NCBI GenBank assembly: GCA_017450525.1
Contig: JAFSTJ010000148.1
Span: 1 to 52,038 of the forward strand
Reading direction: 5' to 3'
DNA: 52,038 bases
Origin: Victivallales bacterium
GTDB lineage: Bacteria; Verrucomicrobiota; Lentisphaeria; Oligosphaerales; Oligosphaeraceae
Shown: positions 5,085 to 47,377 of the stretch, one piece after another
Layout of the letters: every line of letters starts with the position of its first letter
Numbering within the stretch: the first letter of the stretch is position 1
Program-made: the position numbers and the translations under genes
The notes under the pieces: generated by a model
The model's database searches: none
What the model was told of the DNA's origin: nothing
Seen by the model: only the letters and a program-made list of their open reading frames with translations

Positions 5085-6001
5085 GCAATCTTATTGGCGC
5101 TTCAGATATCATGGGGCGGTTGAATGCCAGGTTGGAACGGCTAGCGGCATTGGAGGCAAACGTGCTGATTGAAGGCGAGACAGGCACTGGCAAGGAATTG
5201 GCGGCACGTAGCATCCACGCAAAATCCGCCCGTCGCAAAGGGCCGTTTGTGGCATTGAATTGCGGTGCTCTTCCCAGGACATTGCTGGAGAGCCAGCTTT
5301 TCGGCAGTGCAAAGGGCACCTTCACTGGCGCCAGTGAAGACAGGCGTGGCCTCTGCGAAGAGGCAAACAGCGGCATTCTCTTTCTCGATGAAATCGGCGA
5401 ATTGCCATTGGAGGCTCAGGCGGCACTCCTTCGCTTTCTGGACAGCGGCGAGATAATGCGCCTTGGCGAAAACCGCAGCCGCCGTTGCGACGTTCGCGTC
5501 ATCGCCGCCACTAACAGGAAACTGCAGTCAATGCTTGAGGCGGGAACATTTCGCCAGGATCTGTACTATAGGCTATCAGTGCTGAAGGTGAGCATGCCGC
5601 CTTTAGCCAGCCATATTGAGGACATAGGACAACTGGCAAGGCATTTCCTTTGCCAGATAGGACCTGGCTACCAGCTGTCAGACGAGGCTGTGGACGCTCT
5701 TTGCCATCGCCAATGGCCTGGCAACGTGCGGGAACTACGCAATGTGATGTGGCAGGCCGCCGAAATGGCGGAAAACCACCGCATCACCGCAAACTGCATA
5801 CCTGTGGATTATTGGAATTCAACCCTTACTTCTCCGACGCGTCAATGCACAAACATGACTGAGGCGATTGAACAACTGCAGGACAAAATGATACAGCAGG
5901 CATTGCAGGAATGCAAAGGAAATATGTGCTTGGCCGCCAAAAAACTCGGCATCCACCGAAACACACTCCGTAACCTCCTTCAACGCAAAGACGCCTTTTA
6001 A
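5081..6001 (+). CDS. Sigma-54-dependent transcriptional activator: AAA+ core plus Fis-type HTH, no N-terminal sensor/receiver domain
   Basis: Walker A GETGTGKE, GAFTGA-loop variant ESQLFGSAKGTFTGA, Walker B ILFLDEIGEL, RVIAATN, FRQDLYYRL, WPGNVRELRN. C-terminal HTH: NMCLAAKKLGIHRNTLRNLL. The ATG overlaps the upstream stop (ATGA at 5081..5084). Confidence 0.9.
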   Translation: MSNLIGASDIMGRLNARLERLAALEANVLIEGETGTGKELAARSIHAKSARRKGPFVALNCGALPRTLLESQLFGSAKGTFTGASEDRRGLCEEANSGILFLDEIGELPLEAQAALLRFLDSGEIMRLGENRSRRCDVRVIAATNRKLQSMLEAGTFRQDLYYRLSVLKVSMPPLASHIEDIGQLARHFLCQIGPGYQLSDEAVDALCHRQWPGNVRELRNVMWQAAEMAENHRITANCIPVDYWNSTLTSPTRQCTNMTEAIEQLQDKMIQQALQECKGNMCLAAKKLGIHRNTLRNLLQRKDAF

Positions 6002-6123
6002 CGCAGAGGCGCAAAGACGCAGAGACGCAGAGTTTTTTAGAGTTTTATGAGGTAATTGCAAAACTATTGGCGTTGCAAGCCTTTGCCGCTGGCTGAAGCC
6101 AGCGGCTCCGATAGTTTGCAGCG

Positions 6124-8397
6124 TTATGATTTGGCCCTGATGGCGGCGCGGCGTATCTTGCCGTTGACTGTCTTGGGCAATTCGCTTACGAATTCGATGA
6201 TGCGGGGATACTTGTATGGTGCGGTATGTGTCTTGACATATTCCTTGATCTCAGTGGCGAGTTGATCCGAAGGCTCCTTGCCCTTGACCAATACGACCGT
6301 TGCCTTGACGACTTTGCCGCGTGTCGGGTCAGGCACGCCAGTGACCGCGCATTCCAGGATATATGGCAGCTCCATAAGGACGCTCTCCACCTCGAATGGG
6401 CCCACCCTGTATCCAGATGTCTTGATTATGTCATCGGCGCGTCCTTGGTACCAGAAGTATCCTTTTTCGTCTTGCCATGCCTGGTCGCCTGTGTGGTAGT
6501 AGCCGTCATGCCATGCGGCTTTGGTGTCGTCAGGCGCGTCCATATAGCACTTGAACAGGCCGCAAGGATGGTTGGCATCATCCGCCTTGATGCATATCTC
6601 GCCAGTTTCGCCAGTCTTGACTGGCTTGCCTGCCTCGTCCAGCAATATCACATCATATTGCGGATTTGCCTTTCCCATGGAGCCAGGACAGGGCTTCATG
6701 TCCGAAAGGGTGCCGATGGTGAGCGTGGTCTCGGTCTGACCGAAACCCTCGTATGGCAGCTGTCCTGAAACACGAGCGAATGCCTCGCTGACTTCGGCAG
6801 GCATGGCTTCGCCAGCCGTGGTCACATGCTCCAGCGTGGAGAAGTCATACTGCGCGATGTCTTCCTTGACCATGAATCTGAATATGGTGGGCGGTGCACA
6901 GAATGTGGTGATGCCGAATTTCTTGAACATTGGGAGTATCTCGGCGGCATGGAAGCGGTCGAAGTCGTATGTGAATACGCCAGCTTCGCAGAGCCATTGA
7001 CCGTAGATTTTGCCCCACAGCGCCTTGCCCCAGCCAGTGTCAGCTATGGTGAAATGCAGACCATCTGGGTTTACTTTGTGCCAATGGCGGGCCGTCATGA
7101 TATGGCCCAGCGGATATGCGTAGTCATGCTCCACCATCTTGGGATAGCCTGTGGTGCCAGAACTGAAGAAGATCAGCATTGGGTCGCTGGTGCGCTGCTC
7201 CTCTGCGCGGGGGAAGTCTGGCTTGAAGTTGGGATACAGTTCGTCATAGTTTAGCCATCCATCATGCTTGCCGTTGACGACGAACTTCAGCCTCATTCCA
7301 TTGTAGTCTGCGCCGTCGATCTCGTTGCAGATATTGCCGTCCGCCGATGCGAAGATGTACTTGATGTTGGCTTTTTTGAAGCGGTATTCGAAGTCATGGG
7401 CGGTCATCTGGCAGGAGGCGGGAACCGCGACGGCGCCCAGGATATGCAGGGCATTCAGCACATACCAGAACTGATAATGCCTCTTCAGCACCAGCATGAC
7501 TCTGTCCCCTCTGCGCACGCCCATGGAATGCAGCAGATTGGCGGTACGCATTGCGTTGTCGCTGATTTCGCGGAATGTGAAGTCATGGAGCTCCTGGTTC
7601 TTGGAGAGCCAGCGCATGGCTATCTTATCGGGGCACTGGTCAGCCAGGCGCTTCAACACGTCATACGCGAAGTTGAAGTTGTCTGGCACCTTGAAGCTGA
7701 CTTTCTTCAGTGTGCTGTCCTCATTCCATTCTTCGTCCATGTATTCCTGATACAGCAGATGCCTTTGCGCGGCCTTGTTGGTGTCGGGAGCCTTCTTTGG
7801 TTCCATAGCGAACCTATCGGGCTTGCTGGCATCGTCGTTCTTGCCGTGCATCACTATGGAGAGGAACTTGCAGCCTTCTGGGCTTATGGCAGTCATGGCA
7901 TGTGGGTCCCTGCCGTCGAAATATATGCTGTCTCCCTGGTTGAGGATTTCTTCCTTGCCATCAAGGAACACCTTCAGCGTGCCTGAGATTATAAGGTCGA
8001 ATTCCTGGCCATTGTGCTCGGAATACTGGATAAGTTGGTCTTGTTTGCCGCAGGGAGCGGTGACGATGAAGGGTTCGCCTGTGCGCTCCTTCATGCGTAT
8101 TGCCTGGTGCAGATAGGAGAAGCCAGGTCTGCGTACAAAGGGGAAGCCCTCGCCATCCCTAGTGACTGTGTAGTGGGCGAGATTAGATTCCTCGCCACTG
8201 ATAACCGAGGACACATCCAGCCCAAAATACTCAGCAACATTGTAGTAGAACGAGAAGGGGGCCTGCTTTGTGCCGTCTTCGTAGGTCTGGTAGTTCTCTA
8301 CCGTCACGCCCAGGATTTCCGCCATCTGCTGCACGGTCAATCCTTTCTGCGTACGCAATTCGCGAACCCTCATTGCGATTTGTTCATTCTTTTCCAT
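6124..8397 (-). CDS. Fusion protein: XRE-type HTH + cupin + AMP-forming acyl-CoA synthetase/ligase
   Basis: N-terminal VRELRTQKGLTVQQMAEILGVTVENYQTYE (HTH_3-like). A cupin-like block follows (HNGQEFDLIISGTLKVFLDGKEEILNQGDSIYFDGRDPHAM). ANL-superfamily motifs are FFSSGTTGYPKMV, YGQTE-like GFGQTET, YHTGD, GRADDIIKTSGYRVGPFEVES and a terminal NGKIRR. Confidence 0.9.
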   Translation of the reverse strand: MEKNEQIAMRVRELRTQKGLTVQQMAEILGVTVENYQTYEDGTKQAPFSFYYNVAEYFGLDVSSVISGEESNLAHYTVTRDGEGFPFVRRPGFSYLHQAIRMKERTGEPFIVTAPCGKQDQLIQYSEHNGQEFDLIISGTLKVFLDGKEEILNQGDSIYFDGRDPHAMTAISPEGCKFLSIVMHGKNDDASKPDRFAMEPKKAPDTNKAAQRHLLYQEYMDEEWNEDSTLKKVSFKVPDNFNFAYDVLKRLADQCPDKIAMRWLSKNQELHDFTFREISDNAMRTANLLHSMGVRRGDRVMLVLKRHYQFWYVLNALHILGAVAVPASCQMTAHDFEYRFKKANIKYIFASADGNICNEIDGADYNGMRLKFVVNGKHDGWLNYDELYPNFKPDFPRAEEQRTSDPMLIFFSSGTTGYPKMVEHDYAYPLGHIMTARHWHKVNPDGLHFTIADTGWGKALWGKIYGQWLCEAGVFTYDFDRFHAAEILPMFKKFGITTFCAPPTIFRFMVKEDIAQYDFSTLEHVTTAGEAMPAEVSEAFARVSGQLPYEGFGQTETTLTIGTLSDMKPCPGSMGKANPQYDVILLDEAGKPVKTGETGEICIKADDANHPCGLFKCYMDAPDDTKAAWHDGYYHTGDQAWQDEKGYFWYQGRADDIIKTSGYRVGPFEVESVLMELPYILECAVTGVPDPTRGKVVKATVVLVKGKEPSDQLATEIKEYVKTHTAPYKYPRIIEFVSELPKTVNGKIRRAAIRAKS

Positions 8398-22076: not shown

Positions 22077-22262
22077 TCAAAGCACAGCAAAATCCTTCTT
22101 CTCCGCATTGCGCTGACGCACCAATGTAGCGGCGGATACGATTTTGGGTTTTCCTGACTTGTCACTTACAACAGCCTTGTACCCTAGTTTAGCCTTGCGC
22201 TCCAGCTCCTCGTCTACAGCCTCTTGCAAACAGGCAAGTGCCATTTCCATGTCTTTACTCAT
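22077..22262 (-). CDS. Small charged protein, translationally coupled downstream of the zeta-like ATPase (candidate antitoxin or partner)
   Basis: MSKDMEMALACLQEAVDEELERKAKLGYK... Its ATG lies inside ATGAGTAA, which also carries the upstream gene's TAA stop (8-nt overlap). Confidence 0.5.
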   Translation of the reverse strand: MSKDMEMALACLQEAVDEELERKAKLGYKAVVSDKSGKPKIVSAATLVRQRNAEKKDFAVL

Positions 22263-22845
22263 TTCTTGCAAGCTCCTTCAGGTGTGAAAATACCTGCTGC
22301 TCATAGATGAAATAATCCGTGTCCAACCTTTTCTCGAAAATCGGCCTTATGCGTTCCTGAGAATTGTCAAAGCAGAATGTGCTGTCACAAATCTCCGCAT
22401 AATCGAACAGGTTCTTCACGGTACGCGGGAAGCGTCTGATGATGGTTTCTTCTGGTACATTGTGTCCTCCTTGTTGAACTCGCAGCGCAACACGTTGTGC
22501 GGAGAATTCCGCACTGGGCAGATATAGGAACCATAGAGACACTTGCCAGCCCTGTTTGCGCCACTCCCGTATGCGTGACAGGTACACCCGCCCCGCAAGG
22601 GTTGTCTCAAATGCAAATGTCTCCCTATTGTTGATTTTTTGCTCAAGTTCGCAAAGGAACAGCTTGCTTGCCTGGAGCTGGCCTGCCGTGAAATCCAGCG
22701 GGGAAATGCCCTTTGCAATTTCATCCGCATTGATGAAATTCTTGCACGAGACTATGCTGGGCAGATACTTCATTGCAAAAGTCGTCTTGCCCGAGCCATT
22801 AGGTCCCGCCACAATATGGCAAGTTGGCTGTTCAATCCGCGACAT
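22255..22845 (-). CDS. Zeta-toxin-family / COG4185-type P-loop kinase-like ATPase
   Basis: ORF 22255..22851 starts at a TTG. ATG 22845 gives MSRIEQPTCHIVAGPNGSGKTTFAMKYL (Walker A). Followed by NADEIAKG, FAFETTLAG and GGHNVPEETIIRRF, typical of the zeta/AAA_33-like fold. Confidence 0.75.
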   Translation of the reverse strand: MSRIEQPTCHIVAGPNGSGKTTFAMKYLPSIVSCKNFINADEIAKGISPLDFTAGQLQASKLFLCELEQKINNRETFAFETTLAGRVYLSRIREWRKQGWQVSLWFLYLPSAEFSAQRVALRVQQGGHNVPEETIIRRFPRTVKNLFDYAEICDSTFCFDNSQERIRPIFEKRLDTDYFIYEQQVFSHLKELARNE

Positions 22846-22943
22846 TGTCAAAAAACCTCGTAGAGTATCGCTTAATTTACCCCAAGATGTTCATATTTCA
22901 AGAAATATTCTAAAACCTTAGCGGGAAGTACCTCCCCTGACCA

Positions 22944-27775: not shown

Positions 27776-28564
27776 CTAGCACCAAAGCGTTTCAATAGGC
27801 CTGTTTTGGTGTGCGACCTGCAAGACGATGTCTGGCCTGTCAATGTTCTGGAGGCATTGCTGTGCCCTGTCGAAAGCGATTTTCTCCTTGTTGCACTCTC
27901 TGCTGATGTGTGCTAGGATGACGTTCCTAGTGCAGTCGGAAGCCACGTCGGCAAGAAGCTGTGCGCTGGCTTCGTTGCTGAGGTGCCCCTGCCTGCTCAT
28001 TATTCTCTGCTTGAGATGCCATGGGCGAGATGAAGCGGCCAGCATATCCAGGTCATGGTTGCTTTCCAATACAAGCGCCGTACACTCCCTTAGCTGGTAT
28101 TCCACCATAGAGCTGGCGTAGCCAATGTCGGTTGCTATGGCGATTTTCCTGTTACCGCAGATGAATGAGAATGCTACGGGGTCCGAGGCGTCATGTGGAA
28201 TGGAGAATGGGCAAACTGTGATGGAGCCTATGTCAAATGTCCCGCCTGGCGCGAATGTCGCCATTTGGCGCAGGCGCTCGTCTTTGCAGCGCATTTTCTG
28301 TGCGCATTTCATGGAGGCGAATATAGGAGCGTCAAGAGTTTTTGCACATACGCGCAGGCCCTTTACATGGTCGTCATGCTCATGGGTGACAAGAATCGCG
28401 TTTATGCGCAGTCCTTCCAGGCCAGCCAGTTGCAGGCGTCTTTGGGTTTCCCGTGCGCTGAAGCCAGCGTCCACCATTATTGCCGTGCCGCCGTATTGGA
28501 TAATCGTGCAATTTCCAGAACTGCCACTGCCCAAAACTGTTATGCCAATGTTGTCTTCGCTCAT
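27776..28564 (-). CDS. MBL-fold metallo-hydrolase
   Basis: GITVLGSGSSGN ... VDAGFS ... ILVTHEHDDHVKG (HxHxDH motif) ... LAHIS. The ATG overlaps the lpxB stop (ATGA at 28561..28564). Confidence 0.85.
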   Translation of the reverse strand: MSEDNIGITVLGSGSSGNCTIIQYGGTAIMVDAGFSARETQRRLQLAGLEGLRINAILVTHEHDDHVKGLRVCAKTLDAPIFASMKCAQKMRCKDERLRQMATFAPGGTFDIGSITVCPFSIPHDASDPVAFSFICGNRKIAIATDIGYASSMVEYQLRECTALVLESNHDLDMLAASSRPWHLKQRIMSRQGHLSNEASAQLLADVASDCTRNVILAHISRECNKEKIAFDRAQQCLQNIDRPDIVLQVAHQNRPIETLWC

Positions 28565-29712
28565 AAGTCCCCTGCCCTGCCCTCAAGCAGCTCGATAACG
28601 GCTTCTGCCGCCCTGGCGCTTGCCTTTGTGTCTTCTCCAAGCATTTTCACGCATTTTTCAATGCCCTCCAGGCAAGTCTGTCTTCTGGCCCCGCCTGGAA
28701 GAATGTCCTCAAGTGCGCTCGCAAGTTTGTCTGGCACAGCGTCATATTGAAGTCTTTCCTCATATACTGTCTGCCCTGTAACGAGGTTTGCAATCGTGAT
28801 TGACGGCAGTTTGACCAGTGCCTTTGCCACTTGATATGTGAGCCAGCTGACCTTGTAGGATACAACCAATGGCAAGCCCAGCATGGCGGCTTCCACGGTA
28901 ACTGTTCCGCTGGCGGCAATACCTGCGATTGCCTTTTTCATCTGTTGCCTGGTATCGCCTACGCTTATCTGGAAGCATTTTATTTGTTCTTCATTGAGAT
29001 TGCACTCCTCCAAGAGCCGTTCCGCAAGTTTTCTTGTTTTTTCGCGAGGCAGCGGGATTACGAAATGCAGTTCTTGGTGTTTTTCCTTGAGAAGCAAGGC
29101 TGTTTGCACAAAGGTCTTAAGCAGTGCCTTGAGTTCGTTGGAGCGGCTTCCTGGTAGCAGTAGCACGAGTTTTTCATCGCGCTGGATATCGCTTTTGCGT
29201 AGAGGTGCTAGTATATCCAGCAAGGGATGACCGATGAATTTGACGTCAAGCCCAGTCCCATCATAGACAGCTGGCTCAAACGGGAATATGCAAAGCATTC
29301 TGCGCACGCATTTCGCGATGGTCTTTATCCTGCCTTTCTTCCATGCCCAGACCTGGGGGCTGATGTAGTAAATCACAGGGATACCTGCTTTATGAAGGCG
29401 TTGTGCCAGTCGCAGGTTGAAGCCAGGATAGTCAATCAGAATCACAGCGTCTGGGCGTTCCTCGGCGGCACGCCGTGCCATGTCTTTCAGTAGTCTTATA
29501 AAAAAGAAAATGCTTTTGAGAACCTCGACTATGCCCACCACGCCTAGTTCAGTGGAATCCACCATTATTTCGACGCCTGCTTTGCGCATTGCGGCGCCGC
29601 CCATTCCCTTTATGGTCAGTCCTGGCTGGCGTTCCCAAAGCTCCTTTGCGAGAGCGGCCCCGTACATGTCGCCAGAAGTCTCGCCGCTGATTATCCAGAT
29701 AGTCCTTGACAT
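28561..29712 (-). CDS. lpxB: Lipid-A-disaccharide synthase (GT19)
   Basis: IWIISGETSGDMYGAALAKEL, VILIDYPGFNLRLA, YYISPQVWAWKKGR, LLPGSRSNE, SGTVTVEAAMLGLPLVV: the LpxB pattern along the full length. Confidence 0.9.
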   Translation of the reverse strand: MSRTIWIISGETSGDMYGAALAKELWERQPGLTIKGMGGAAMRKAGVEIMVDSTELGVVGIVEVLKSIFFFIRLLKDMARRAAEERPDAVILIDYPGFNLRLAQRLHKAGIPVIYYISPQVWAWKKGRIKTIAKCVRRMLCIFPFEPAVYDGTGLDVKFIGHPLLDILAPLRKSDIQRDEKLVLLLPGSRSNELKALLKTFVQTALLLKEKHQELHFVIPLPREKTRKLAERLLEECNLNEEQIKCFQISVGDTRQQMKKAIAGIAASGTVTVEAAMLGLPLVVSYKVSWLTYQVAKALVKLPSITIANLVTGQTVYEERLQYDAVPDKLASALEDILPGGARRQTCLEGIEKCVKMLGEDTKASARAAEAVIELLEGRAGDL

Positions 29713-29726
29713 TGTAGGAACACCTG

Positions 29727-30812
29727 TTAGTTGTTTGCCAGCGAGGGAAGCGTGATGTTATTTGTTTTTGCCCAGTCTTTTATCCTTAGGAGAAGTCCCT
29801 GGCTGCTGTTTATGCGCAGATCTCTTCTGGGTATTGTGCAGTCCCTTATTATTTCCTGCAATTCTGGATAATCGTCCAGTTCAGGGATATCCAGAATGCT
29901 TGGTCTGTTGTCTTTTTCAAGGTGGTATTTTGCATCGGTTCGGAATTGTTTCTGCACCAGGCTGCTTTGAGGCTGGTTAAGCGGCTTTGCGCCGAAGAAC
30001 ACGGCAAATGCCACCCCTAGTGCAAACACATCCGTTGCGCCGTTGAGTGGTGCCTTGCATATTTGTTCAGGCGAGAGGTAGCCACCTGTTCCTGTTATTG
30101 CCATAGGCTTGAAGCCGTCTCCCACTGAAACACCGAAGTCAATCAGCTTGACGCGCCCGTTGTTGAGAATGAAGTTTGAGGGCTTTATGTCCAGATGTAT
30201 GAGGCGTTTGCTGTGGAAATAGCATATTGCCTTAACTGCCTGTGCAAACACATCTATCTTGTCCTCTACAGAAAGGCTCTTTGTCAATGCCTTGTCCGCC
30301 AAGTCATGCCCTGTAAGATATTCCATTATCAGATCGTATCCTACTTCCAGGCCGAATTTCTTGACTTTGCGCAGGGCGTAGATATGGACAAGTGGTGTGT
30401 CCTCGGTATCTGTGCAGACAAGTTTTGACACCTCGTATTCATTCATTATGTGCCTGACCTTGGTGCGGTAGGATACTTTTTCAAGCCTCTCCTCCTGGCG
30501 TCTAGTAGCGCTGTCACCGATAATTTTATTCAGAAAGCCTCTGACGCACTTGATGCAGACCTGTTGTCCCTGCAAATCACCAATGTACAGGACGCTTTCC
30601 GCGCCTTTTGCCAATTCGCTTTCTATGGTGTATGGCTTCTCCTGTGCATTGCGTTTGATGGCCGCATGGTCGATTGTCTTCTTTCTGGTTGAGATATATT
30701 GCCTGCCTCCCTTGGGGGCCATTACCTTTGTCTTGTCCTCAAGCTCCACATTTCTTGCAGTCAGGCTCTGCGAGGTCATGCTCGCATCTATTCTTTCAGT
30801 ATCTGTCTTCAT
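29727..30812 (-). CDS. Hanks-type Ser/Thr protein kinase, soluble
   Basis: VCIKCV (VAIK-like Lys), catalytic loop HLDIKPSNFIL, DFGVS, activation segment GTGGYLSPEQ, DVFALGV. The Gly-rich loop is degenerate (LAKGAESV). There are 14 nt to the lpxB start and 15 nt from the upstream stop. Confidence 0.85.
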   Translation of the reverse strand: MKTDTERIDASMTSQSLTARNVELEDKTKVMAPKGGRQYISTRKKTIDHAAIKRNAQEKPYTIESELAKGAESVLYIGDLQGQQVCIKCVRGFLNKIIGDSATRRQEERLEKVSYRTKVRHIMNEYEVSKLVCTDTEDTPLVHIYALRKVKKFGLEVGYDLIMEYLTGHDLADKALTKSLSVEDKIDVFAQAVKAICYFHSKRLIHLDIKPSNFILNNGRVKLIDFGVSVGDGFKPMAITGTGGYLSPEQICKAPLNGATDVFALGVAFAVFFGAKPLNQPQSSLVQKQFRTDAKYHLEKDNRPSILDIPELDDYPELQEIIRDCTIPRRDLRINSSQGLLLRIKDWAKTNNITLPSLANN

Positions 30813-30827
30813 TTCACGAGCCGAGCC

Positions 30828-31928
30828 TTATAGTTTTCCAATACGACGCAATGTTGCGAGCACGTCTTCCTGGACGTCTGTCCGTTTGCTGACGGCCTTC
30901 TTGGCTTCGTCCTCCATGTTTACTGCAAGCTTTGGCATCGGGACATACTGATCAAGAGACTTCTTCACCTTCACCTGCGCGTGATGTTCACTGATCCTGT
31001 TGAAGTCTTCCAGCAATTCATCAGGCTTACGTGAATAAAGCAGCGAAACTGTAATGAACGGCTTCTTCAATGAGGGATTCTCTATCACGCTGTATATAGG
31101 TGTCACGTCCTTGCTGTTGAAATAACGCAGCACGCTGTAGAAGATCGTGGGGTCTCCGCCTTGTGGTATCTCCAGCAGGAACATTGCCTCAATTGCATTG
31201 TCTGGCTCCAGAAGCAATGTGTTCATATTTGCGTCAAGTTGCGCCTCGAAGTCCTTGGAAGGCTCGTAGTCAAAGCTTGTGAAGTAATTGAAATAGGGCT
31301 TTGAAATGTACAGTGCGAAGTCTTCATGGTCGATATGCCCGTCTCTCAGGCGGTACATTTCGTTCTTGTCAGGTATTGCAAGGAACACCTTGAGTGAATC
31401 TATCAGCATTGTGTTGAACACATCTTCCGCTATTTCTTTCTCGAACTTTTCCTTGTTGCTGAAAAGCACTATGTTTCCAGTGTTTCCGCTGTCAATTGCC
31501 TCAGTAAGCGGCCCTGTAAGGAAGTCGATGGTATTGTCCACGAATTCCGATGATTCAAGCCCTGCGTATGGAAGAACGATGCCGAAAAATGTCTTGTCAG
31601 ATGTGCTAATGTTTTCCGCTTTTGCAAGATCGTTGAGTATCCCTGATGTTATACCGTTTCCAGTACCACCGCCTGTAGAGCTGAACACCTTGTTGCCTCG
31701 TATGGCGGCCTGAAGCTCTCTCTTGATTGATTCGTATGCGTCATGCCCAATTTCAGGGTTCTTCCTGGAGCCGCGGAATTGACCATGCTCCGCCCTTACG
31801 GTGGCTAATATTCTCTCCGAGCCTCCCTGGACCTTGTTAAGCTCCACCTGGGACACGTTCACCAGAATTGCCTCATTGTCGAGTTCCACGGCTAATTTGC
31901 AGCCTGCACCGCCGATGCCAATTGTCAT
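30828..31928 (-). CDS. Divergent FtsZ/tubulin-superfamily GTPase (TubZ/FtsZ-like)
   Basis: In order: MTIGIGGAGCK (T1 G-box), GSRKNPEIGHDA (cf. FtsZ GAGxNPxxG), SSTGGGTGNGITSG (tubulin signature GGGTG[ST]G), VLFSNKEKF (cf. FtsZ IPND region), GHIDHEDF (T7-like acid pair). The ATG overlaps the upstream stop (ATGA, 31925..31928). Confidence 0.8.
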   Translation of the reverse strand: MTIGIGGAGCKLAVELDNEAILVNVSQVELNKVQGGSERILATVRAEHGQFRGSRKNPEIGHDAYESIKRELQAAIRGNKVFSSTGGGTGNGITSGILNDLAKAENISTSDKTFFGIVLPYAGLESSEFVDNTIDFLTGPLTEAIDSGNTGNIVLFSNKEKFEKEIAEDVFNTMLIDSLKVFLAIPDKNEMYRLRDGHIDHEDFALYISKPYFNYFTSFDYEPSKDFEAQLDANMNTLLLEPDNAIEAMFLLEIPQGGDPTIFYSVLRYFNSKDVTPIYSVIENPSLKKPFITVSLLYSRKPDELLEDFNRISEHHAQVKVKKSLDQYVPMPKLAVNMEDEAKKAVSKRTDVQEDVLATLRRIGKL

Positions 31929-32284
31929 TGCAAGTTCTCCAGATATGCCGATGCCTGTGGCTTGAATAGGTCTCTTTTGACCATCATTTCTAGCGCACGG
32001 GCACCATAGCGGGTTATGTATATGTTCTTTCTGTTATGCTCGTCCCTAATGTCAATGAAACACAATGTCGAAAGGGCAAAGACGGATGAGACTGCGGTCT
32101 GCTTTGTGCGTGTCAGCCCTGCCTGTTTCATGTCGTCAAAGGCATTGGTTATGTTGTATTTATAACCGCGCCCTTCACTCTGCGTAGCCCAATACAGGAT
32201 CATGAAATGACTTTCCTGTAGCCGTAGCACCTGTTCCTCAAACAGAGGTCCAAGTTCATCTACCATGGCGACGTTCTTTTTCAT
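31925..32284 (-). CDS. Small winged-helix DNA-binding protein (TubR-like position)
   Basis: 119 aa. Helix-turn-helix-like GLTRTKQTAVSSVFALSTLCFI is followed by a wing-like RDEHNRKNIYITRYG. AGGA RBS upstream of ATG 32284. Fold assignment is by eye only. Confidence 0.6.
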   Translation of the reverse strand: MKKNVAMVDELGPLFEEQVLRLQESHFMILYWATQSEGRGYKYNITNAFDDMKQAGLTRTKQTAVSSVFALSTLCFIDIRDEHNRKNIYITRYGARALEMMVKRDLFKPQASAYLENLQ

Positions 32285-32415
32285 TCGTGTTCCTAATTAT
32301 TTACCTGCGTACGCGTGTTTCATATATATTTAATCAAAAAATTTGCCGTAAGATAACCCAATCGCCGCATTTTGCAAATTCACCTTGGCTTCTACTCCTC
32401 CTCGCATGATAATAT

Positions 32416-32460
32416 TACACTATACTACACTACACTATAATACATTATATTACATTATAG
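32416..32460. promoter_or_regulatory. 10-bp-phased iteron-like array in the divergent promoter region
   Basis: tacactatac tacactacac (tataa) tacattatat tacattatag. It lies about 130 nt upstream of the wHTH gene start, in a very AT-rich stretch. The 8-bp palindrome gcgtacgc sits at about 32307..32314. Confidence 0.55.
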
Positions 32461-32629
32461 TTTAATATAGTAATGGCAGTGTCGGCAGGTATGGAGCCTA
32501 AATGGGCAATAGCATATTTAGTTAGAAATAAGAAATGTTAATGAAATTATAAAATATTATACAAGAAAATCATATTAATTACGTTATATAATAGATTGAG
32601 AAAGGGAATAATACAATAAAAACATAATA

Positions 32630-34116: not shown

Positions 34117-35175
34117 ATGGCTAATATCGAAGATAGTAAAAAAAGACGACCAGTTGATATTGCATCAAAGATGTTCTTTGGACAGCCAATTGTGGCAGCG
34201 GATGTAATAAATATATGTATTCGAGATCAAATCGGAAAAGGGAAAATACTTCCTGAATATTTAACAAGACTTGATCCGGCACACTATAATGTGCTGGTTG
34301 AGAAAGACGGTAAAATTAAAAGTGACAATCGGTACAGGGACCTGTTGTTCAAATGCAAGATTCCAGAAAAGGAGGGGAAATATATATATGTAGGGATTGA
34401 ATTGCAGACGAAAAAGGACAAGAACATGCTTGAGAGATGCTGGGAATATGACTTGAGATTTTATATAGAGCAGAAACATGACATAGCAGGGCGAGGTAGT
34501 TATGAAAGAATCCCTATTGTGAATATTGTATTATATCTTGGATATGACAAATGGAATGAGAAAATGTCATTGTTCGAGAAGCCATTTAATTTTCCAAAGG
34601 GAGTAATGTCTATATGTCCGAATTACTTCATCAATGTGTTCAACATGGTGGATTTGGCAAGAAAATCTGAGGTGGCTGATAGCGAAGAGTTGCGGGTTGT
34701 GCTAAATTGCTATCGCTTTATAAAAAACAAGAGAAAGTTGGAGACAATTATAAAGACAGGTATGCCCCTCGGCGTTTACAGCCTAAATGCCGCTATTCTC
34801 ATTAATGTATGCCTGAGACTGAAACTTAAGTTAAAAGTAGAAAATGGGAGAGTGGACATGTGCAAGGCAATGGACGATTGGAGAAAAGAGATTGAGAGAA
34901 AGGCCGAGAAGAGGGGTGAGAAGAGGGGTGAGAAGAGGGGTGAGAAGAGGGGAGTGATTATTGGCAAAGAAATTGGCAAAGAAATTGGCAAGGAAATTGG
35001 TAAGGCAATGGCTGATAGAAGGGCAGAGAAGCGAGGCAAGGAAAATACAATTATCAGCATTGTCCAGAGAATGCTTATTGGTGGGGTTTCTATCCGTGAT
35101 ATAGCAAAATACACTGGCTCGTCAAGCGCGAAAGTTAGAGCAATTGCTGCAGCGCAGAATCTTGCCCTGAATTGA
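34117..35175 (+). CDS. Rpn-family recombination-promoting nuclease / putative transposase (PD-(D/E)xK, YhgA-like) with internal tandem repeats
   Basis: N-terminal DIASKMFFGQP ... RYRDLLFKC ... YIYVGIELQTKKDKNMLERCWEY follows the YhgA/Transposase_31 pattern. In-frame repeats (GEKR)x4 and (GKEI)x4 are present, and the C-terminus has an HTH-like GVSIRDIAKYTGSSSAKVRAI. Confidence 0.7.
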   Translation: MANIEDSKKRRPVDIASKMFFGQPIVAADVINICIRDQIGKGKILPEYLTRLDPAHYNVLVEKDGKIKSDNRYRDLLFKCKIPEKEGKYIYVGIELQTKKDKNMLERCWEYDLRFYIEQKHDIAGRGSYERIPIVNIVLYLGYDKWNEKMSLFEKPFNFPKGVMSICPNYFINVFNMVDLARKSEVADSEELRVVLNCYRFIKNKRKLETIIKTGMPLGVYSLNAAILINVCLRLKLKLKVENGRVDMCKAMDDWRKEIERKAEKRGEKRGEKRGEKRGVIIGKEIGKEIGKEIGKAMADRRAEKRGKENTIISIVQRMLIGGVSIRDIAKYTGSSSAKVRAIAAAQNLALN

Positions 35176-35639: not shown

Positions 35640-36461
35640 TTACAACAGTTTCTTTTGCATCCACTGACGGGGGGATTCGTTAATATTACGCTTGAAGAAT
35701 CGTGAGAAGACGTATTCGCTGCTGAAGTTCATTAGCGTGGCGATTTCCTTTGAGGAGCGACCGTTTTGAAGCAATTCCAGGCAGCGTCCTGTTATCACTC
35801 GGTCTATAAGTTGTTTTGGGGTGATGCCAGTGCGTTCCTTGAAATGGCGTGTGAAGCATTCCCTGCTTTCGCCACATATTGATGCAAGTTCACTGACGGA
35901 TGTCTGTGCATCCCCTTGTTTTACGAGATAATCTGTGAGGTGCATGTATTGCTTCAGGGACAAAGGTCCCTGGAATGCCTCCTCGTCGTATGATGACAAA
36001 AGCCTAGCCATGATGGAGAAGGCAAGGCCGCCTACTTTAGCCGCTGCGATGCAATTATTGTCCGTGGAGGAAAACAGTTCAAGCAATTCCTGGAATTCAG
36101 GCTGCTGGGGCAACTCAAGCATGTGATTGCAGGCTGAAAATAACTCCACTCCAGGAAAAATGTAAAGGTTGGTGTGGACGGAAAGGAACTGCAACTCCTC
36201 GTCAAGCAGGAAAATCACAGGCAGGTATGCGGGCACAAAATAGAAACGGCCTGGCACCATTGTGTAACTCTTGAAGTGGTCGGCAATATAATTGTCCTCG
36301 CCATTTGGATTTTGCAAGGGAAAAAACAGGCGGTTTACAGGCATGGCCTTGTATTCTTGCTTTCGGTAAGGATAGGTGCCTTTTGCGTAATGCCTAACAT
36401 AAAATCTTGAATTATTGATGATTTTAAGCAGGTCATCCCTGTCTATGTGTGTTATTCCCAT
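35640..36461 (-). CDS. AraC-family transcriptional regulator
   Basis: The C-terminal double HTH (SELASICGESRECFTRHFKERTGITPKQLI ... IATLMNFSSEYVFSRFFKRNINESPRQW) is characteristic. It is divergent from the glycyl-radical enzyme gene. Confidence 0.88.
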   Translation of the reverse strand: MGITHIDRDDLLKIINNSRFYVRHYAKGTYPYRKQEYKAMPVNRLFFPLQNPNGEDNYIADHFKSYTMVPGRFYFVPAYLPVIFLLDEELQFLSVHTNLYIFPGVELFSACNHMLELPQQPEFQELLELFSSTDNNCIAAAKVGGLAFSIMARLLSSYDEEAFQGPLSLKQYMHLTDYLVKQGDAQTSVSELASICGESRECFTRHFKERTGITPKQLIDRVITGRCLELLQNGRSSKEIATLMNFSSEYVFSRFFKRNINESPRQWMQKKLL

Positions 36462-36606
36462 GGTCAGTTTCTCCAGTCATTGCTCACTAACATAGTGCAG
36501 AAAATCTTATTTTAAATCACAAATTGCTAAATAATAATTTTTTTTGCTATAGTAAATAATTGTAAAAAGTATATTTTATACGCAAGTGAAATAAGGAGGT
36601 GTATGT

Positions 36607-38664
36607 ATGGAATACGCCAGTTTTGATGAAATAAGGCCTCGTCTGGAAAAGCAATACGAGAATGCAGAGTATTGCATGGAAGGCGCCTGGGACGAGCAGA
36701 GGATGCGCATGGAATGGACCGCATGGCAGGCGGACAATCCAAATGAATACCGCGGTTTGCAGCGTGCAATGTTGACGAAGATGCTGCTGGAGCATGCGCC
36801 AATCGCCATTGAGAAGTGGAATCCTTTTCCTGGCAAGTTCAAGTGCTACAACCTTCCAATGGAGGATGTTAATGCACATTACAAGACGGCGGATGAAGTT
36901 GTGCCTGGCGTGGAACCTTACAAGATGGATTTCCAAAGAGGATTGGGATGGATGGTGGACAAAAGCCACGCAGCCCCAGACTGGAAAAGGGTGCTCGAAC
37001 TTGGCATTCCTGGTATGCTTGAGCAGGTTGCTGGGCGGGATACGCCATTCTATAAAGCGCTTGCCATTAGCCTGGAGGCGGTGAAGTGCTTCTGCCATCG
37101 TGTTGCTCGCCTCAATGATAACCCCGTGTATGATGAGATAGCGGAGCACGCGCCAAAGACCTTGCACGAGGCATTTGCCCTTGCATTTGTCCTCCACGAT
37201 GTGATAGAGATATGCCAGTGTGAGCAGATGCGCACCATGGGACGCTTTGATTCACTTTACATTGACTTCTACAGGAATGATCTGGCGGCTGGACGCTTGA
37301 CCAGAGATAGCGCAAAGGAACTCATAAAGTTCTTTTGGATTGTGTTTTATGCACGTTTCCAGGGGCTGCGCTTCGGCAAGAACTTCTGCTTTGGCCCCAA
37401 GTTCAACGAACTGTCGTACCTCGCCATGGAGGCGTATTATGAGATGAACATACAGGACCCCAAACTGTCTATTCTTGTTACGGAGGACATGCCACAGGAC
37501 TTCGCGGAATTGTATGCAAAATGCATCCGCGATGGGCGCACGGCGATAGTATCCCTGAACTATGAAGTGATTGTGGAAGGGCTTGTAAAGGATGGGCGCA
37601 CCAAGGAGGATGCGGAGAATTTCGTGCCCATAGGCTGCTACGAGCCTGCCGTGGCGGGCAAGGAGATGTCTTGCTCTGGGGCCACGCATTTGTTTATGCC
37701 CGTTATACTGCTGGCACTCCTTGAAGAAGACAGGCAATACGCCTCCTTTGAAGAACTTAAGAACGACTATCTTAGGAAAATCGGAGATACCATAAAACTA
37801 CTGCAGGAGAAACAGATACCCTGCGACAAGGTGTGGAGCCACATAAATCCAGTTCCGCTGCTGTCCGCTACATTTACGTCCTGTGTGGAAAGGGGACTGG
37901 ACGTATCGGAGGCGGGCGCAGTCTATAATTCCACAGGCACAGTTGTTTCCTACACCGCCGATGCCGTTGATTCACTGGCTGCAATACGTTATCTGGTGTT
38001 CGAGAAAAAACTTTGTACACTGGATGAATTGAGGGCAATCCTTGCAGACAACTGGCAGGGGCATGAACGTCTCAGGCGAATTGCCTTGACCAAGCCGCCT
38101 AAATGGGGTAACAACGACCAGAGGGCAGATGCCCTGGCTGTGGAGATAGCGGATTTTGCCTCTAAACGGCTGAAGGAGACCGCCAATGGACGCGGAGGGC
38201 ATTTCTTCCCGTCCATCTATGGACAGAGGGTGGTGGAGAATGGCCGCGAAATCGCCGCTCTGCCATCGGGACGATTGTCTGGCGAGCCTATGTCAAAGAA
38301 TATGGACGCTGTAATCGGAATGGACAGGCACGGCATAACCGGGCTCATGGAATCCGTGCTAAAAATTGACATGACTGCCTTCCCCTGCGGCACATGCCTG
38401 GATTTGATGCTGCATCCCACCTCGGTCAAGGGTAGTGAAGGCGTTCCGCTTCTGGTGTCCATAATTCGGAGATTCATTGCCCAAGGCGGCAGCGGAATAC
38501 AGTTCAATATATTCGATGCGAATGTGCTGAAGGATGCCCAGAAGCACCCTGAGAAGTACGAGAATCTTCAGGTGCGCGTCTGCGGCTGGAATGTGAAATT
38601 CAATGATTTGGAACCTGATGCCCAGGAGACTTTCATACGCCAGGCGGAAGAATTGATTAGTTGA
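36607..38664 (+). CDS. Glycyl radical enzyme (PFL-like fold, eliminase/dehydratase-type active-site loop), unusually short at 685 aa
   Basis: C-terminal glycyl-radical motif LQVRVCGWNVKFNDL. A Cys loop VPIGCYEPAVAG (GC-x-E type) is present. AAGGAGGT RBS at 36594..36600. Confidence 0.85.
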   Translation: MEYASFDEIRPRLEKQYENAEYCMEGAWDEQRMRMEWTAWQADNPNEYRGLQRAMLTKMLLEHAPIAIEKWNPFPGKFKCYNLPMEDVNAHYKTADEVVPGVEPYKMDFQRGLGWMVDKSHAAPDWKRVLELGIPGMLEQVAGRDTPFYKALAISLEAVKCFCHRVARLNDNPVYDEIAEHAPKTLHEAFALAFVLHDVIEICQCEQMRTMGRFDSLYIDFYRNDLAAGRLTRDSAKELIKFFWIVFYARFQGLRFGKNFCFGPKFNELSYLAMEAYYEMNIQDPKLSILVTEDMPQDFAELYAKCIRDGRTAIVSLNYEVIVEGLVKDGRTKEDAENFVPIGCYEPAVAGKEMSCSGATHLFMPVILLALLEEDRQYASFEELKNDYLRKIGDTIKLLQEKQIPCDKVWSHINPVPLLSATFTSCVERGLDVSEAGAVYNSTGTVVSYTADAVDSLAAIRYLVFEKKLCTLDELRAILADNWQGHERLRRIALTKPPKWGNNDQRADALAVEIADFASKRLKETANGRGGHFFPSIYGQRVVENGREIAALPSGRLSGEPMSKNMDAVIGMDRHGITGLMESVLKIDMTAFPCGTCLDLMLHPTSVKGSEGVPLLVSIIRRFIAQGGSGIQFNIFDANVLKDAQKHPEKYENLQVRVCGWNVKFNDLEPDAQETFIRQAEELIS

Positions 38665-38667
38665 ACA

Positions 38668-39570
38668 ATGAAAACTGCACCATACATTGACATAAAGCGC
38701 TTTGCAGTTCATGACGGGCCAGGAATCAGGACGACGCTGTTCCTGAAGGGCTGTAGCCTGCGCTGCATCTGGTGTCACAATCCAGAGAGTCGTGAATTGC
38801 GTCCTGAACTGGCTTTCCGCGAGATGAAATGCGCCCTTTGCGGAGAGTGCGCAAAAGTCTGCCACTACCACGTCATTGAGACTGGAAAGCATTTATTCAA
38901 GCGCGAGGAAAGCCAAGGCTGTGGCAGATGCGAGCAGGCATGTTTGTTTGGCGCACTGGAGTTGTATGGCAAGCAGATTTCCGTGGAGGAGGCAGCCAGC
39001 GTCCTGCTGGAGGACCGCAACTTCTACGGCGATGATGGAGGCATTACGATTTCGGGTGGTGAGCCATTGATGCACAGCAAGTTTTGCTCAGAGTTGTTTG
39101 CGCGTATTAAAGAAGAGGGCATCCACACCGCCTGCGACACTTGTGGAAACGTGCCCTGGAGCGCATTCGAGGAAGTGCTGCCAAACTGCGATGTGTTCCT
39201 CTACGACTTCAAATGCGCGAATACGGAACTACACAAGCGCCTGACTGGCTCGGGAAATGAACTCATACTTGAAAATCTTGAACGACTTTCACACACGGGC
39301 AAGGCGATAGAGATACGCATGGTAATGGTGCCGCAGCACAACATGGATATGGAAAATATCAGAAATGCAGCTACATTCCTTATGAGGCTTGACAACATTA
39401 CCGCTGTCAGGCTTCTTGCATACCATTCCATGGCAAGATCTAAATTCAAAGCAATCGGACATAAGGATACCATGCCTGACGTGCCACCTCCAACAGAACA
39501 AGAAATGGAGCAGGTCGAAAGGGTATTGGCGTCATACGGCTTGAATGTCATCAACACCTTGAGGAATTAA
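38668..39570 (+). CDS. Glycyl-radical enzyme activating protein (radical SAM)
   Basis: CSLRCIWCHNPES (Cx3Cx2C) plus two ferredoxin-like Cys clusters (CALCGECAKVCH, CGRCEQACLFGA). ITISGGEPL is also present. It starts 3 nt after the GRE stop. Confidence 0.9.
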   Translation: MKTAPYIDIKRFAVHDGPGIRTTLFLKGCSLRCIWCHNPESRELRPELAFREMKCALCGECAKVCHYHVIETGKHLFKREESQGCGRCEQACLFGALELYGKQISVEEAASVLLEDRNFYGDDGGITISGGEPLMHSKFCSELFARIKEEGIHTACDTCGNVPWSAFEEVLPNCDVFLYDFKCANTELHKRLTGSGNELILENLERLSHTGKAIEIRMVMVPQHNMDMENIRNAATFLMRLDNITAVRLLAYHSMARSKFKAIGHKDTMPDVPPPTEQEMEQVERVLASYGLNVINTLRN

Positions 39571-45406: not shown

Positions 45407-47377
45407 GTGAAAATGAGTTACGATGATGACACATCTTTGAGCAGTGCACCCCAAAACGACGGTGAGGCTCCAATCAAGAGACGCAGGGGGAGGCCGCCGA
45501 AGGCAAGTGCCGCCCAGTCTCAGGAAGCAGGGGCGGTGGTCCCACCACCCGCACCTGAACCAGTAGCGCCGCCAGCTGACAATTTTGAGCAGCCGCCTCA
45601 AAGAAATGAATATGTGCCTCGCTTTTTAACGAGGCGAGACTTGCAGCCCCGAACCATGACCGAGGCACCCGAGGGCTATGAAAACAAGTCTTATCCCAGA
45701 CCTAATGTACAGCCAAGTTTCCAATCCACTGTTCAGCCACGCGATACAACAGCCCAGGATGGCATGGGATATCGCAACGCAGGCTCAGCATATCGCCAGC
45801 AGAACAACATGCGCAATCCGATGTACCGCAATCAAGGTGGCAACACTGGTCTGCGTCGTCCTGCCAATGGCAATATGATGCGCAGTTCCAATATGCGTCA
45901 AACAGGCGATGACGGCGAACTTTCGGAAAACGGCGGGCGCAACAAGATGGCAATGCAGCGCAACCAGAGGAATCGCCGTCGCACGAGCAGAGGCCCAATC
46001 GACTACACGAACAGAAATCCCCGAATTGATGACATCAGGGAGATGGAGCGCTTCAGTGAAAGCGAGAGGCAGCGCATGGAGGAATCTGGCATTGCCGAAC
46101 CAAGGCGCATCAAGTTCGAGGATATGCAGCATCTGGGCAAGGATGACATGCTTGCACTAGGCCAGAAGCTCAACATGGAGAATGTGGAAACCGCCACCCG
46201 TCTGGAAATATTGCTTCATGCGGCCCGTCATTATGGCGCGGACCCGAGCATTTACATCGAAGTGCGCGGCGTGTTGCAGATACTTGGGGATGGCTTTGGC
46301 TTCCTGCGCGGTGTTCGCAAGAGCTATACCATCGACTGCGAGGACATATTCGTAAGCCCAGCCATGATCAAGAAATATTTGCTGAAGACAGGCGATACCA
46401 TCGTAGGCAGAATGAGGCAGCCCACAATTGTGGAGCAGTGTTTCTCGCTGATGAGCATTGAGACCATCAATGGCGATGATCCTGAACGCAAGAAGCATAT
46501 CACCCCCTTTGAGCAGTTGACGCCGTATTTCCCCACAAAACGCCTCATTTTGGAGCATGACCCTGATGAAATGTCCACCCGTATAATCGATATGGTTACG
46601 CCTATTGGACGTGGACAGCGCGGTCTAATCGTGGCTGGTCCACGTACAGGCAAGACCGTTATAATGCAGAAGATAGCCAATAGCATTATTGCCAACGATC
46701 CTGACGTGGAAGTCATAATCATGCTGATTGACGAGCGTCCCGAGGAAGTTACGGACATGAAGCGCGAGGTCAAGGCAGAAGTGGTGAGTTCCACCTTTGA
46801 TGAGACACCTGAAAAGCATGTCCAGGTTGCGGAGATGGTGATAGAGAAGGCTAAGCGCTTGGTTGAGCATGGAAAGCATGTTCTGATCATGCTGGATTCC
46901 ATAACTAGGCTTGCCAGGGCGTACAATACCTTGCAGCCCCAGAGTGGGCGCATCCTGTCTGGTGGTGTGGATTCAAATGCTCTTCACAAGCCGAAGCGCT
47001 TCTTCGGTGCGGCACGCAACATCGAAAACGGCGGCAGCCTCACCATCATTGCAACTGCGCTGGTGGATACTGGCAGCAAGATGGACGAGGTTATCTTTGA
47101 GGAATTCAAGGGCACAGGAAACATGGAACTGCGTCTGGATCATCATCTGGTGGACAAGAGACTGTATCCTGCCATCGATGTGGAGGCCAGCGGCACCAGA
47201 CGAGAGGAACTTCTGGTGCACGAGGACGAGCTGAAGAGGCTTTGGGCATTGCGTCGCGCATTCTGTGCACTTACAAGCACGGAGGCCATGGACGAGCTGC
47301 TTAAGCGCCTTAAGAAATTCAAGTCCAACATTGAATTCCTGCTGTCGCTCAAGATGCCTAATGAAAATGAGGAGTAA
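45407..47377 (+). CDS. rho: Transcription termination factor Rho with a low-complexity N-terminal extension of about 230 aa
   Basis: [16 protein letters not shown] (RNA-binding domain), Walker [67 protein letters not shown]. Start is GTG 45407 or ATG 45413 (AGGTGA just upstream). Confidence 0.92.

Follow-up and report, generated by a model that had tools for sequence, protein, structure and literature searches.

A TubZRC-like module on the chromosomes of Lentisphaerota and Kiritimatiellota, with a Hanks-type kinase in one clade

The contig JAFSTJ010000148.1 of a Victivallales bacterium (52,038 nucleotides; called here the window, by which we mean the whole stretch of DNA analyzed) carries on its minus strand an array of short repeats followed by genes for a winged-helix protein of 119 residues, a GTPase of 366 residues with the FtsZ/tubulin fold and a Hanks-type Ser/Thr kinase of 361 residues. 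We favor, with moderate confidence, the reading that this module is a chromosomal, vertically inherited counterpart of the type III partition systems known as TubZRC, and that it is kinase-regulated in one clade. What is new here is a type III-like system that resides on the chromosome, extends across two phyla and is coupled to a kinase in one clade. The preliminary description of this DNA had read the locus as a TubC/TubR/TubZ-like unit in a chromosomal setting with an added kinase, and the fold of the GTPase, its TubZ-type relatives, the match of the small protein to TubR and the co-location of the genes all agree with that core reading.

The GTPase gene (30828-31928, minus strand) shares an ATGA overlap with the small gene that precedes it. 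The AlphaFold model of its product, built from an alignment of 40 sequences, was predicted with good confidence (predicted local distance difference test score, pLDDT, 86.7; predicted template modeling score, pTM, 0.81) and has a two-domain core, a long helix (residues 302-327), a low-confidence and likely flexible linker (residues 328-337) and short tail helices. A Foldseek comparison of this model with the PDB yielded 602 matches at E≤0.001, with FtsZ, TubZ and CetZ at the top and ∼320 aligned columns; FtsZ reached an E-value of 2e-16, the TubZ of phage c-st a template modeling score on the target (TMt) of 0.74-0.75, and the TubZ of B. thuringiensis (2xka) the highest score on the query (TMq), 0.69-0.70. 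As modeled, the protein has the FtsZ/tubulin fold, as had been proposed for it. Within the 40-sequence alignment the GTPase motifs are invariant or nearly so (T1 GIGGAG, T4 GGGTGNG and a T7-like GHIDxEDF), the invariant residues being G4, G6, G7, G9, G86-G92 and D200/E202/D203. These motifs align to T1 and T4 of FtsZ, and in hhalign the T7-like motif aligns to the TubZ-type GNIDxxE. The C-terminal tail, DVLxxLRRLGKL, is conserved as well, with L360, R362 and K365 invariant in the same alignment.

The family to which this GTPase belongs is isolated in sequence space. In a Pfam search the window protein matched PF00091 (Tubulin) below threshold (27.3 bits vs 33; residues 20-104), which may be the reason why the family was overlooked; precomputed Pfam annotation assigns PF00091 to about half of the listed members, and the match is faint where the context listings mark it. 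There were 320 homologs, and the 120 listed have 56-94% identity and are all unnamed "hypothetical proteins"; those among the 120 that carry a taxon label are all Lentisphaeria or Victivallales. An exhaustive HMMER search of 1.84 billion representative proteins with the GTPase profile gave 71 matches, which comprise about three full-length clusters at 50% identity and then, after a gap, remote full-length matches with E-values of ∼4e-6 to 1e-3. All ten of the remote matches that were sampled (E ∼4e-6 to 6e-4) contain the Pfam Tubulin domain, eight contain a TubZ C-terminal domain (TubZ_C_3 or TubZ-like_C) and none contains FtsZ_C. The alignment of the family with 14 remote matches, in eight of which the TubZ C-terminal domain was confirmed, scored 99.3% in hhalign (E 4.6e-20) over 289 columns that span residues 4-326. 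In a profile search of PDB sequences, Odinarchaeal FtsZ1 (1.8e-6) and RepX/TubZ of pXO1 (3.5e-6) were found, and the match to RepX/TubZ was the longest (residues 15-209). Judged by sequence, the nearest relatives of the GTPase beyond its own family appear to be TubZ-type proteins.

The gene directly upstream (31925-32284, minus strand) encodes the 119-residue protein, for which 57 homologs were found and no Pfam family was matched. Its AlphaFold model (pLDDT 94.3) is a winged helix-turn-helix with N- and C-terminal helices (topology H-H-H-H-E-E-H), and the alignment of its homologs has as invariant features the helix-turn-helix YNITN..FDD..K...TRTKQT and the wing E.NR...YI (NRKNIY in the window). 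In the PDB, the resulting profile matched TubR of pBM400 (4asn_A) best, over almost the entire length but with a weak E-value of 0.049, and among the top Foldseek matches the same structure gave both the best TMt (0.80) and the best root-mean-square deviation (2.6 Å); TubR of pBtoxis gave a TMt of 0.70. A winged-helix-like protein had been expected at this position, and with TubR as both the best profile match and the best match by TM-score we regard it as TubR-like, for which the support is good but not decisive.

The distribution of the module was determined in a scan that used one genome per species. Relatives were found in at least 107 genomes, and 80 loci, each from a different assembly, were kept, from Lentisphaeria, Victivallales, Oligosphaerales and Kiritimatiellales/Pontiellaceae/Tichowtungia. 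The comparisons below use 84 loci, that is, 83 fetched loci and the window. In all 84, the small gene lies directly upstream of the GTPase gene on the same strand, and the distance from its stop to the GTPase start is between −4 and +10 nt. Among the loci from Lentisphaerota and Kiritimatiellota in the genome scan, GTPase identity to the query ranges from 49 to 71%, and a tree of the GTPase groups the loci broadly by taxon. The flanking genes are housekeeping genes that differ between loci; what is conserved is the set of repeats, winged-helix gene and GTPase gene. Two of the loci lie on large sequences, one on a 5.73-Mb contig from Oligosphaera ethanolica DSM 24202 (L004), which is in culture, and the other on a 3.08-Mb Victivallales chromosome; genome records with the module include NZ_JAUSVL010000001.1 (O. 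ethanolica) and OZ245791.1 (Victivallales). No relatives of the module were found in 72,556 plasmids, 50,697 phage records or IMG/VR. Because the housekeeping flanks vary and plasmid or phage relatives are missing from these collections, we conclude that the module is chromosomal and vertically inherited and not a recent insertion. The chromosomal context named in the preliminary description therefore holds, given the two large sequences and the housekeeping neighbors, and a recently domesticated partition module is unlikely, the module being old and vertically inherited.

Some module-bearing genomes carry the labels Bacteroidaceae, Anaerovoracaceae, Myxococcota or Myxococcales (L041, L051, L055 and L081). 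The GTPase tree places L041 and L055 with L056, which is labeled Lentisphaeraceae, and L051 and L081 as a pair beside L080, also Lentisphaeraceae. This placement suggests that the odd labels reflect mis-binning or mislabeling of metagenome-assembled genomes and not horizontal transfer.

The tubC-like array lies 128-177 nt upstream of the small gene (32412-32461, minus strand) and consists of 5-bp units, about ten of them in phase, which read ARTRT on the gene strand and AYAYT on the plus strand. Tandem Repeats Finder reported periods of 5, 10 and 15. The existence of repeats had been recognized correctly, although they had been described as four 10-bp units at 32416-32460. A pattern of three consecutive ARTRT units with at most one mismatch gave eight matches, compared with 0.09 expected; all eight fall within the array, and the rest of the 52-kb window has none. 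Arrays of this kind recur across the loci, with about 5-18 in-phase units at a median of ∼200 nt ahead of the small gene (in L008, for example, ACACT ACACT ATACT AAACT ATACT TTACT AT AGTGT AGTGT AGTGA). The best pentamer-array window of the entire locus (up to 21 kb) falls upstream of the small gene, at less than 700 bp from it, in 76 of the 84 loci, and in the 1.23 Mb of locus DNA sampled in total, AYACT/ARTRT arrays are 260-730 times enriched in these upstream 700 bp relative to the remaining 1.18 Mb. Comparison with L085 and L087, both close relatives, gave 57/60 identity over the array block, with diverged flanks on both sides. By these comparisons the repeats are a conserved cis element.

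Other conserved blocks occur in the same region. A second, promoter-proximal site, AGTGTAGTATGCTATACT, is found in L004-L008 at ∼100-200 nt upstream of the small gene (∼9340-9360 in L004). The site is made up of pentamers in inverted orientation, AGTAT..ATACT, which overlap with an extended −10-like TGCTATACT, and it may serve as the operator half of a split centromere; a pattern search for it found no equivalent in the window. In the window, the array lies in an AT-rich divergent intergenic region of 345 bp (32285-32629), which also holds the presumed promoter and the blocks GGGTTATCTTACGGC and TATGAAACACGCGTACGCAGG (32290-32350 and 32350-32375, minus strand). Both blocks are identical in L085 and L087 while their surroundings diverge, and a promoter, a 5′ untranslated region or another binding site are the possibilities that we consider for them. 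Intergenic regions of ∼350-550 bp ahead of the small gene are also present in L088-L091.

The kinase gene (29727-30812, minus strand) follows the GTPase gene after a gap of 15 nt. Its product scores 88.7 bits against PF00069 (Pkinase; cut-off 31.7), is soluble, and has an intact catalytic lysine K88 and intact HLDIKPSN, DFG and SPE motifs, all of which are invariant in 41 orthologs. The kinase core comprises 295 residues and is preceded by 44-251 N-terminal residues of variable length, a range that depends on open reading frame (ORF) starts that may be over-extended. In 41 of the 84 loci an ortholog (phmmer E 1e-71 to 1e-123) follows the GTPase gene on the same strand at a distance of 11-252 nt, except in one of them, L049, where it overlaps the GTPase ORF by the ORF calls used. 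On a neighbor-joining tree of the GTPase these 41 loci form one clade, in which only two members have no kinase gene, and the contigs of these two end 530-627 nt past the GTPase gene. The kinase gene is missing after the pair in Kiritimatiellota and in the other Lentisphaerota clades, where the downstream genes are varied. Since the kinase is found in one clade and its catalytic core is invariant, we conclude that it was gained once and retained, which argues for a functional link to the module. The three genes are thus co-located in relatives, as the preliminary description had asked of them, and a kinase gene behind the pair is confirmed for the 41 loci of this clade; as a universal core component the kinase fails, being present in about half of the loci.

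A search of both partner proteins for Ser or Thr residues that are fixed in the kinase clade and absent elsewhere found none. Only residue 142 switches between the clades: the kinase clade has Ala at this position, where the other sequences have Ser. The kinase matched generic models of defense kinases (mad6, PD-T4-6), which we read as family-level similarity and not as a sign of a role in defense; comparison of the GTPase and the 119-residue protein with PHROGs and PADLOC gave nothing useful. In the kinase-less clades, an 851-residue protein without a Pfam match is encoded 8 nt downstream of the GTPase gene in L091 (8103-10658) and a 209-residue protein, likewise without a Pfam match, is encoded close after it in L001 (11233-11862). 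These proteins may be alternative third components.

The module has the gene order of the known type III systems (TubZRC of pBtoxis, pXO1 with its RepX, pBM400 and pBsph, and TubZRY of C. botulinum phage c-st), namely iterons, winged-helix gene and GTPase gene, with the two genes tightly coupled in both cases. The model of the GTPase described here also has, like TubZ, a long C-terminal helix and a tail, which comes after the low-confidence linker. The centromeres of type III systems, located upstream of tubR, are divided into blocks, and those of phage c-st consist, like the array of the module, of 5-bp iterons (PMC6009700). The TubR-tubC complex acts as a repressor of the promoter and binds TubZ at its C-terminal tail (PMC6009700). 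In contrast to TubZRC, which is carried by plasmids and phages of Firmicutes, the module is chromosomal in Lentisphaerota and Kiritimatiellota; its third gene, where present, encodes a Hanks kinase in one clade and not the TubY of TubZRY; its iteron, AYACT/ARTRT, is a different one; and it is far more conserved, as seen in the few full-length clusters noted above, with only remote similarity to characterized TubZ and TubR. Apart from the module described here, known type III systems are confined to plasmids of Bacillus and phages of Clostridium (PMC9871819, PMC6009700), and a 2023 survey of the superfamily lists TubZ as "plasmidic, found in Firmicutes" (PMC9871819).

Two other branches of the superfamily bear comparison. 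FtsZl1 (Tubulin_2) is similarly a divergent FtsZ-superfamily paralog, one that is present alongside FtsZ and frequently has linked Ser/Thr kinases (Makarova and Koonin 2010, PMC2875224), and in Planctomycetes a kinase is fused to it (PMC9871819). Unlike FtsZl1, the module GTPase has a complete C-terminal domain, a winged-helix partner and a repeat array. Membership in FtsZl1 was rejected, as there was no PF13809 match at E-values up to 1 and there were no vWA, OmpA or P-loop GTPase neighbors. With canonical FtsZ the GTPase shares the two-domain fold, the GGGTGxG signature, the T7 acidic residues and the best Foldseek E-values, and it differs from it in having 16-20% identity, no FtsZ_C domain, no dcw cluster and a coupled gene for a DNA-binding protein. 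A precedent for kinase control exists in Actinobacteria, where the Ser/Thr kinases PknA and PknB act on FtsZ and ParB. Unlike these, the module kinase is small and soluble, is encoded within the module's own operon and is kept throughout a large clade. A full-text literature search found no paper that ties TubZ, TubR or a tubulin-like paralog to Lentisphaerota or Kiritimatiellota and no description of the family, in agreement with the earlier statement that no described system of this composition was known.

From these comparisons a mechanism can be proposed. The TubR-like protein would bind cooperatively to the 5-bp iteron array upstream of its own gene, and the resulting complex would be segrosome-like, repressing the operon and marking a chromosomal site. 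The TubZ-like protein, in which the T7-type acidic residues are intact, would polymerize with GTP into dynamic filaments, and these would engage the TubR-DNA complex by the conserved C-terminal tail and thereby move or anchor a chromosomal region. The Hanks kinase, whose gene comes next on the same strand and is probably transcribed together with the two others, appears from its motifs to be active, and it would most likely tune filament assembly or TubR-DNA binding by Ser/Thr phosphorylation.

A broader form of this proposal is that Lentisphaerota and Kiritimatiellota segregate or position the chromosome by a tubulin-family filament that acts on a pentamer-array centromere and is controlled by a kinase in one large clade. 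We put this forward tentatively, as something possible but not what we would expect. Bacterial chromosomes are thought to depend on ParABS, SMC and entropy-driven mechanisms. With this module, the tubulin family would have its first candidate system for handling a bacterial chromosome, and a chromosome-moving tubulin filament, if it exists, would be a bacterial analog of tubulin-based, kinase-regulated mitosis in the Planctomycetes-Verrucomicrobia-Chlamydiae (PVC) group. The kinase encoded in the operon offers a concrete, testable case of a phospho-regulated prokaryotic cytomotive filament, and because a cultured type strain, O. ethanolica DSM 24202, carries the module, these predictions can be tested directly. 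Even if DNA is not the cargo, the family is an undescribed, strongly conserved branch of FtsZ/tubulin with a defined partner protein and DNA site.

Several observations weigh against a type III counterpart on the chromosome. We know of no type III system with a chromosome as its cargo. Nothing pointed to a position near oriC or the terminus: GC skew on either side of the module, analyzed in 26 long loci, had no consistent sign change, and neither dnaA nor parAB was found in the annotated neighborhoods. For the GTPase, Foldseek E-values lean slightly to FtsZ over TubZ, the window protein has no match to the Pfam TubZ C-terminal models, and the tail is presumably also similar to an amphipathic helix for membrane targeting or to the C-terminal peptide of FtsZ, which would imply other partners. 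For the small protein, MarR/ArsR-type proteins gave Foldseek E-values comparable to those of TubR; the profile match behind its assignment to TubR is borderline (E-value 0.049), and the fold is common to many MarR/ArsR-type regulators. Its profile also had no similarity to the 83-residue putative TubR encoded upstream of a typical TubZ_C_3 gene (L084).

The main rival explanation is that the GTPase forms a lineage-specific cytoskeleton involved in shape, division or the envelope. Filaments would then be tethered to the membrane or to FtsA via the tail, the winged-helix protein would be an autoregulator only, with the repeats as its operator, and the kinase would tie assembly to the cell cycle. 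We regard this as rather unlikely, but several features of the data speak for it. The tail is amphipathic and basic, which we take to be a likeness to the membrane-targeting sequences of MinD and FtsA and to the FtsZ C-terminal peptide. The degree of identity between the query and the scanned loci is typical of housekeeping cytoskeletal proteins; mreC adjoins the module in L088, where it is directly upstream (5396-6247), and lies ∼6 kb away in L002 (7585-8433); and the window, L088 and L090 have lipid A genes close to the module. Furthermore, FtsZ is a known substrate of Ser/Thr kinases, and linkage of kinases to FtsZl1 genes has been described (PMC2875224). However, apart from the repeats, the winged-helix gene and the GTPase gene, none of the neighborhood is conserved, arrays of 6-18 iterons far exceed a simple operator and match the architecture of type III centromeres (PMC6009700), and the nearest relatives of the GTPase appear to be TubZ-type partition proteins.

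Two further explanations are much less probable than this one. If the module were a partition cassette left from an integrated plasmid, prophage or other mobile element, without a function for the host, this would fit with type III systems being otherwise known from Bacillus plasmids and Clostridium phages (PMC9871819, PMC6009700), and with the YhgA-like transposase gene 1.8 kb upstream and the low GC content and strong GC skew of the segment that holds it. We nevertheless rejected this explanation and consider it close to refuted, since the plasmid, phage and IMG/VR collections contain no relatives; the spread over at least 107 species genomes (with 80 loci from 80 assemblies), the tree that broadly follows taxonomy, the varied housekeeping flanks and the level of GTPase identity maintained in both phyla also speak against it. 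That the GTPase is instead the organism's own divergent FtsZ is equally improbable in our estimation, although FtsZ is its best match by E-value in both the Foldseek and the PDB-sequence searches and a review states that most PVC bacteria are without FtsZ (PMC5945725). The TIGR00065 ftsZ equivalog model gives it 14 bits against a cut-off of 295.2, an FtsZ_C domain is lacking, the winged-helix gene is always coupled to it, and no ftsA, ftsQ or mur/dcw genes lie beside the module in the annotated loci. FtsZ or ftsZ has been reported separately for Kiritimatiella glycovorans (PMC5148204) and Lentisphaera araneosa (PMC5147048), and ftsZ orthogroups of Lentisphaerota and Kiritimatiellota are recorded in reference genomes (PMC12283558). 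Because the equivalog model fails, a dcw context is lacking and FtsZ is reported separately in both phyla, we conclude that the GTPase is not the canonical FtsZ, a distinction that the preliminary description had left as a point to be settled. A search of the 1.23 Mb of locus DNA with E. coli FtsZ returned only the TubZ-like genes, in a sample far too small to be informative.

In the ORF list of the window, the minus-strand series of array, small gene, GTPase gene and kinase gene continues with lpxB (28561-29712, minus strand; Pfam LpxB 3.9e-89), 14 nt after the kinase gene, and with a gene for a metallo-beta-lactamase (MBL)-fold hydrolase (27776-28564, minus strand), which overlaps lpxB by 4 nt. 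The gene coordinates, the ATGA overlap and the gaps of 15 and 14 nt are as they had been given before. As co-directional neighbors, lpxB and the MBL gene are probably co-transcribed with the module in the window. Elsewhere, lpxB follows the kinase gene only in three Victivallales loci (L010, L012 and L030) and in the near-identical relatives L085 and L086, and lpxB and the MBL gene were rejected as parts of the module on this account. The envelope-related context that had been suggested is thus incidental, because the linkage to lpxB is local to these few loci. In the window, L090 and L088, lipid A genes (lpxB, lpxK and a Lip_A_acyltrans gene) are repeatedly found close to the module, but neither these nor mreC, noted above for L088 and L002, occur with the consistency needed for a linkage to be called. 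The MBL hydrolase has a weak match to the anti-Pycsar protein Apyc1 (15.4 bits vs a cut-off of 50), and precomputed Pfam annotation places Apyc1 on two paralogous copies in L085 and L086 (1618-2394 and 13363-14151 in L085); this is probably generic MBL similarity.

On the other side of the intergenic region, the segment 32630-35175 (plus strand) is divergent from the module and contains a DUF2851 gene (489 residues) followed by a YhgA-like Transposase_31/PD-(D/E)XK gene (352 residues; 34117-35175). Its GC content is low (0.38-0.42) and its GC skew unusually strong (+0.35 to +0.41), and the transposase-like protein contains short tandem peptide repeats (EKRG four times, GKEI three times). In L085, L086 and L087, all close relatives, these two genes are likewise found beside the module. 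Farther downstream of the module, a 198-residue ORF (22255-22851, minus strand) matches Zeta_toxin and AAA_33 (5e-9) and may encode a toxin-like kinase. The YhgA-like gene and this ORF call for a correction to the earlier remark that replication, integrase and phage genes are missing nearby.

The remainder of the window is ordinary chromosome, with genes for IspD, IspG, LeuA, SufBD, oxaloacetate decarboxylase, Rho and glycoside hydrolases. An AraC-family regulator gene is divergent from a gene for a glycyl-radical enzyme (PFL-like and Gly_radical domains, 685 residues) at 35640-39570, and the 300-residue ORF that follows the latter probably encodes its activase. The Rho factor (45407-47377, plus strand; 656 residues) has an N-terminal extension of ∼280 residues ahead of its RNA-binding domain.

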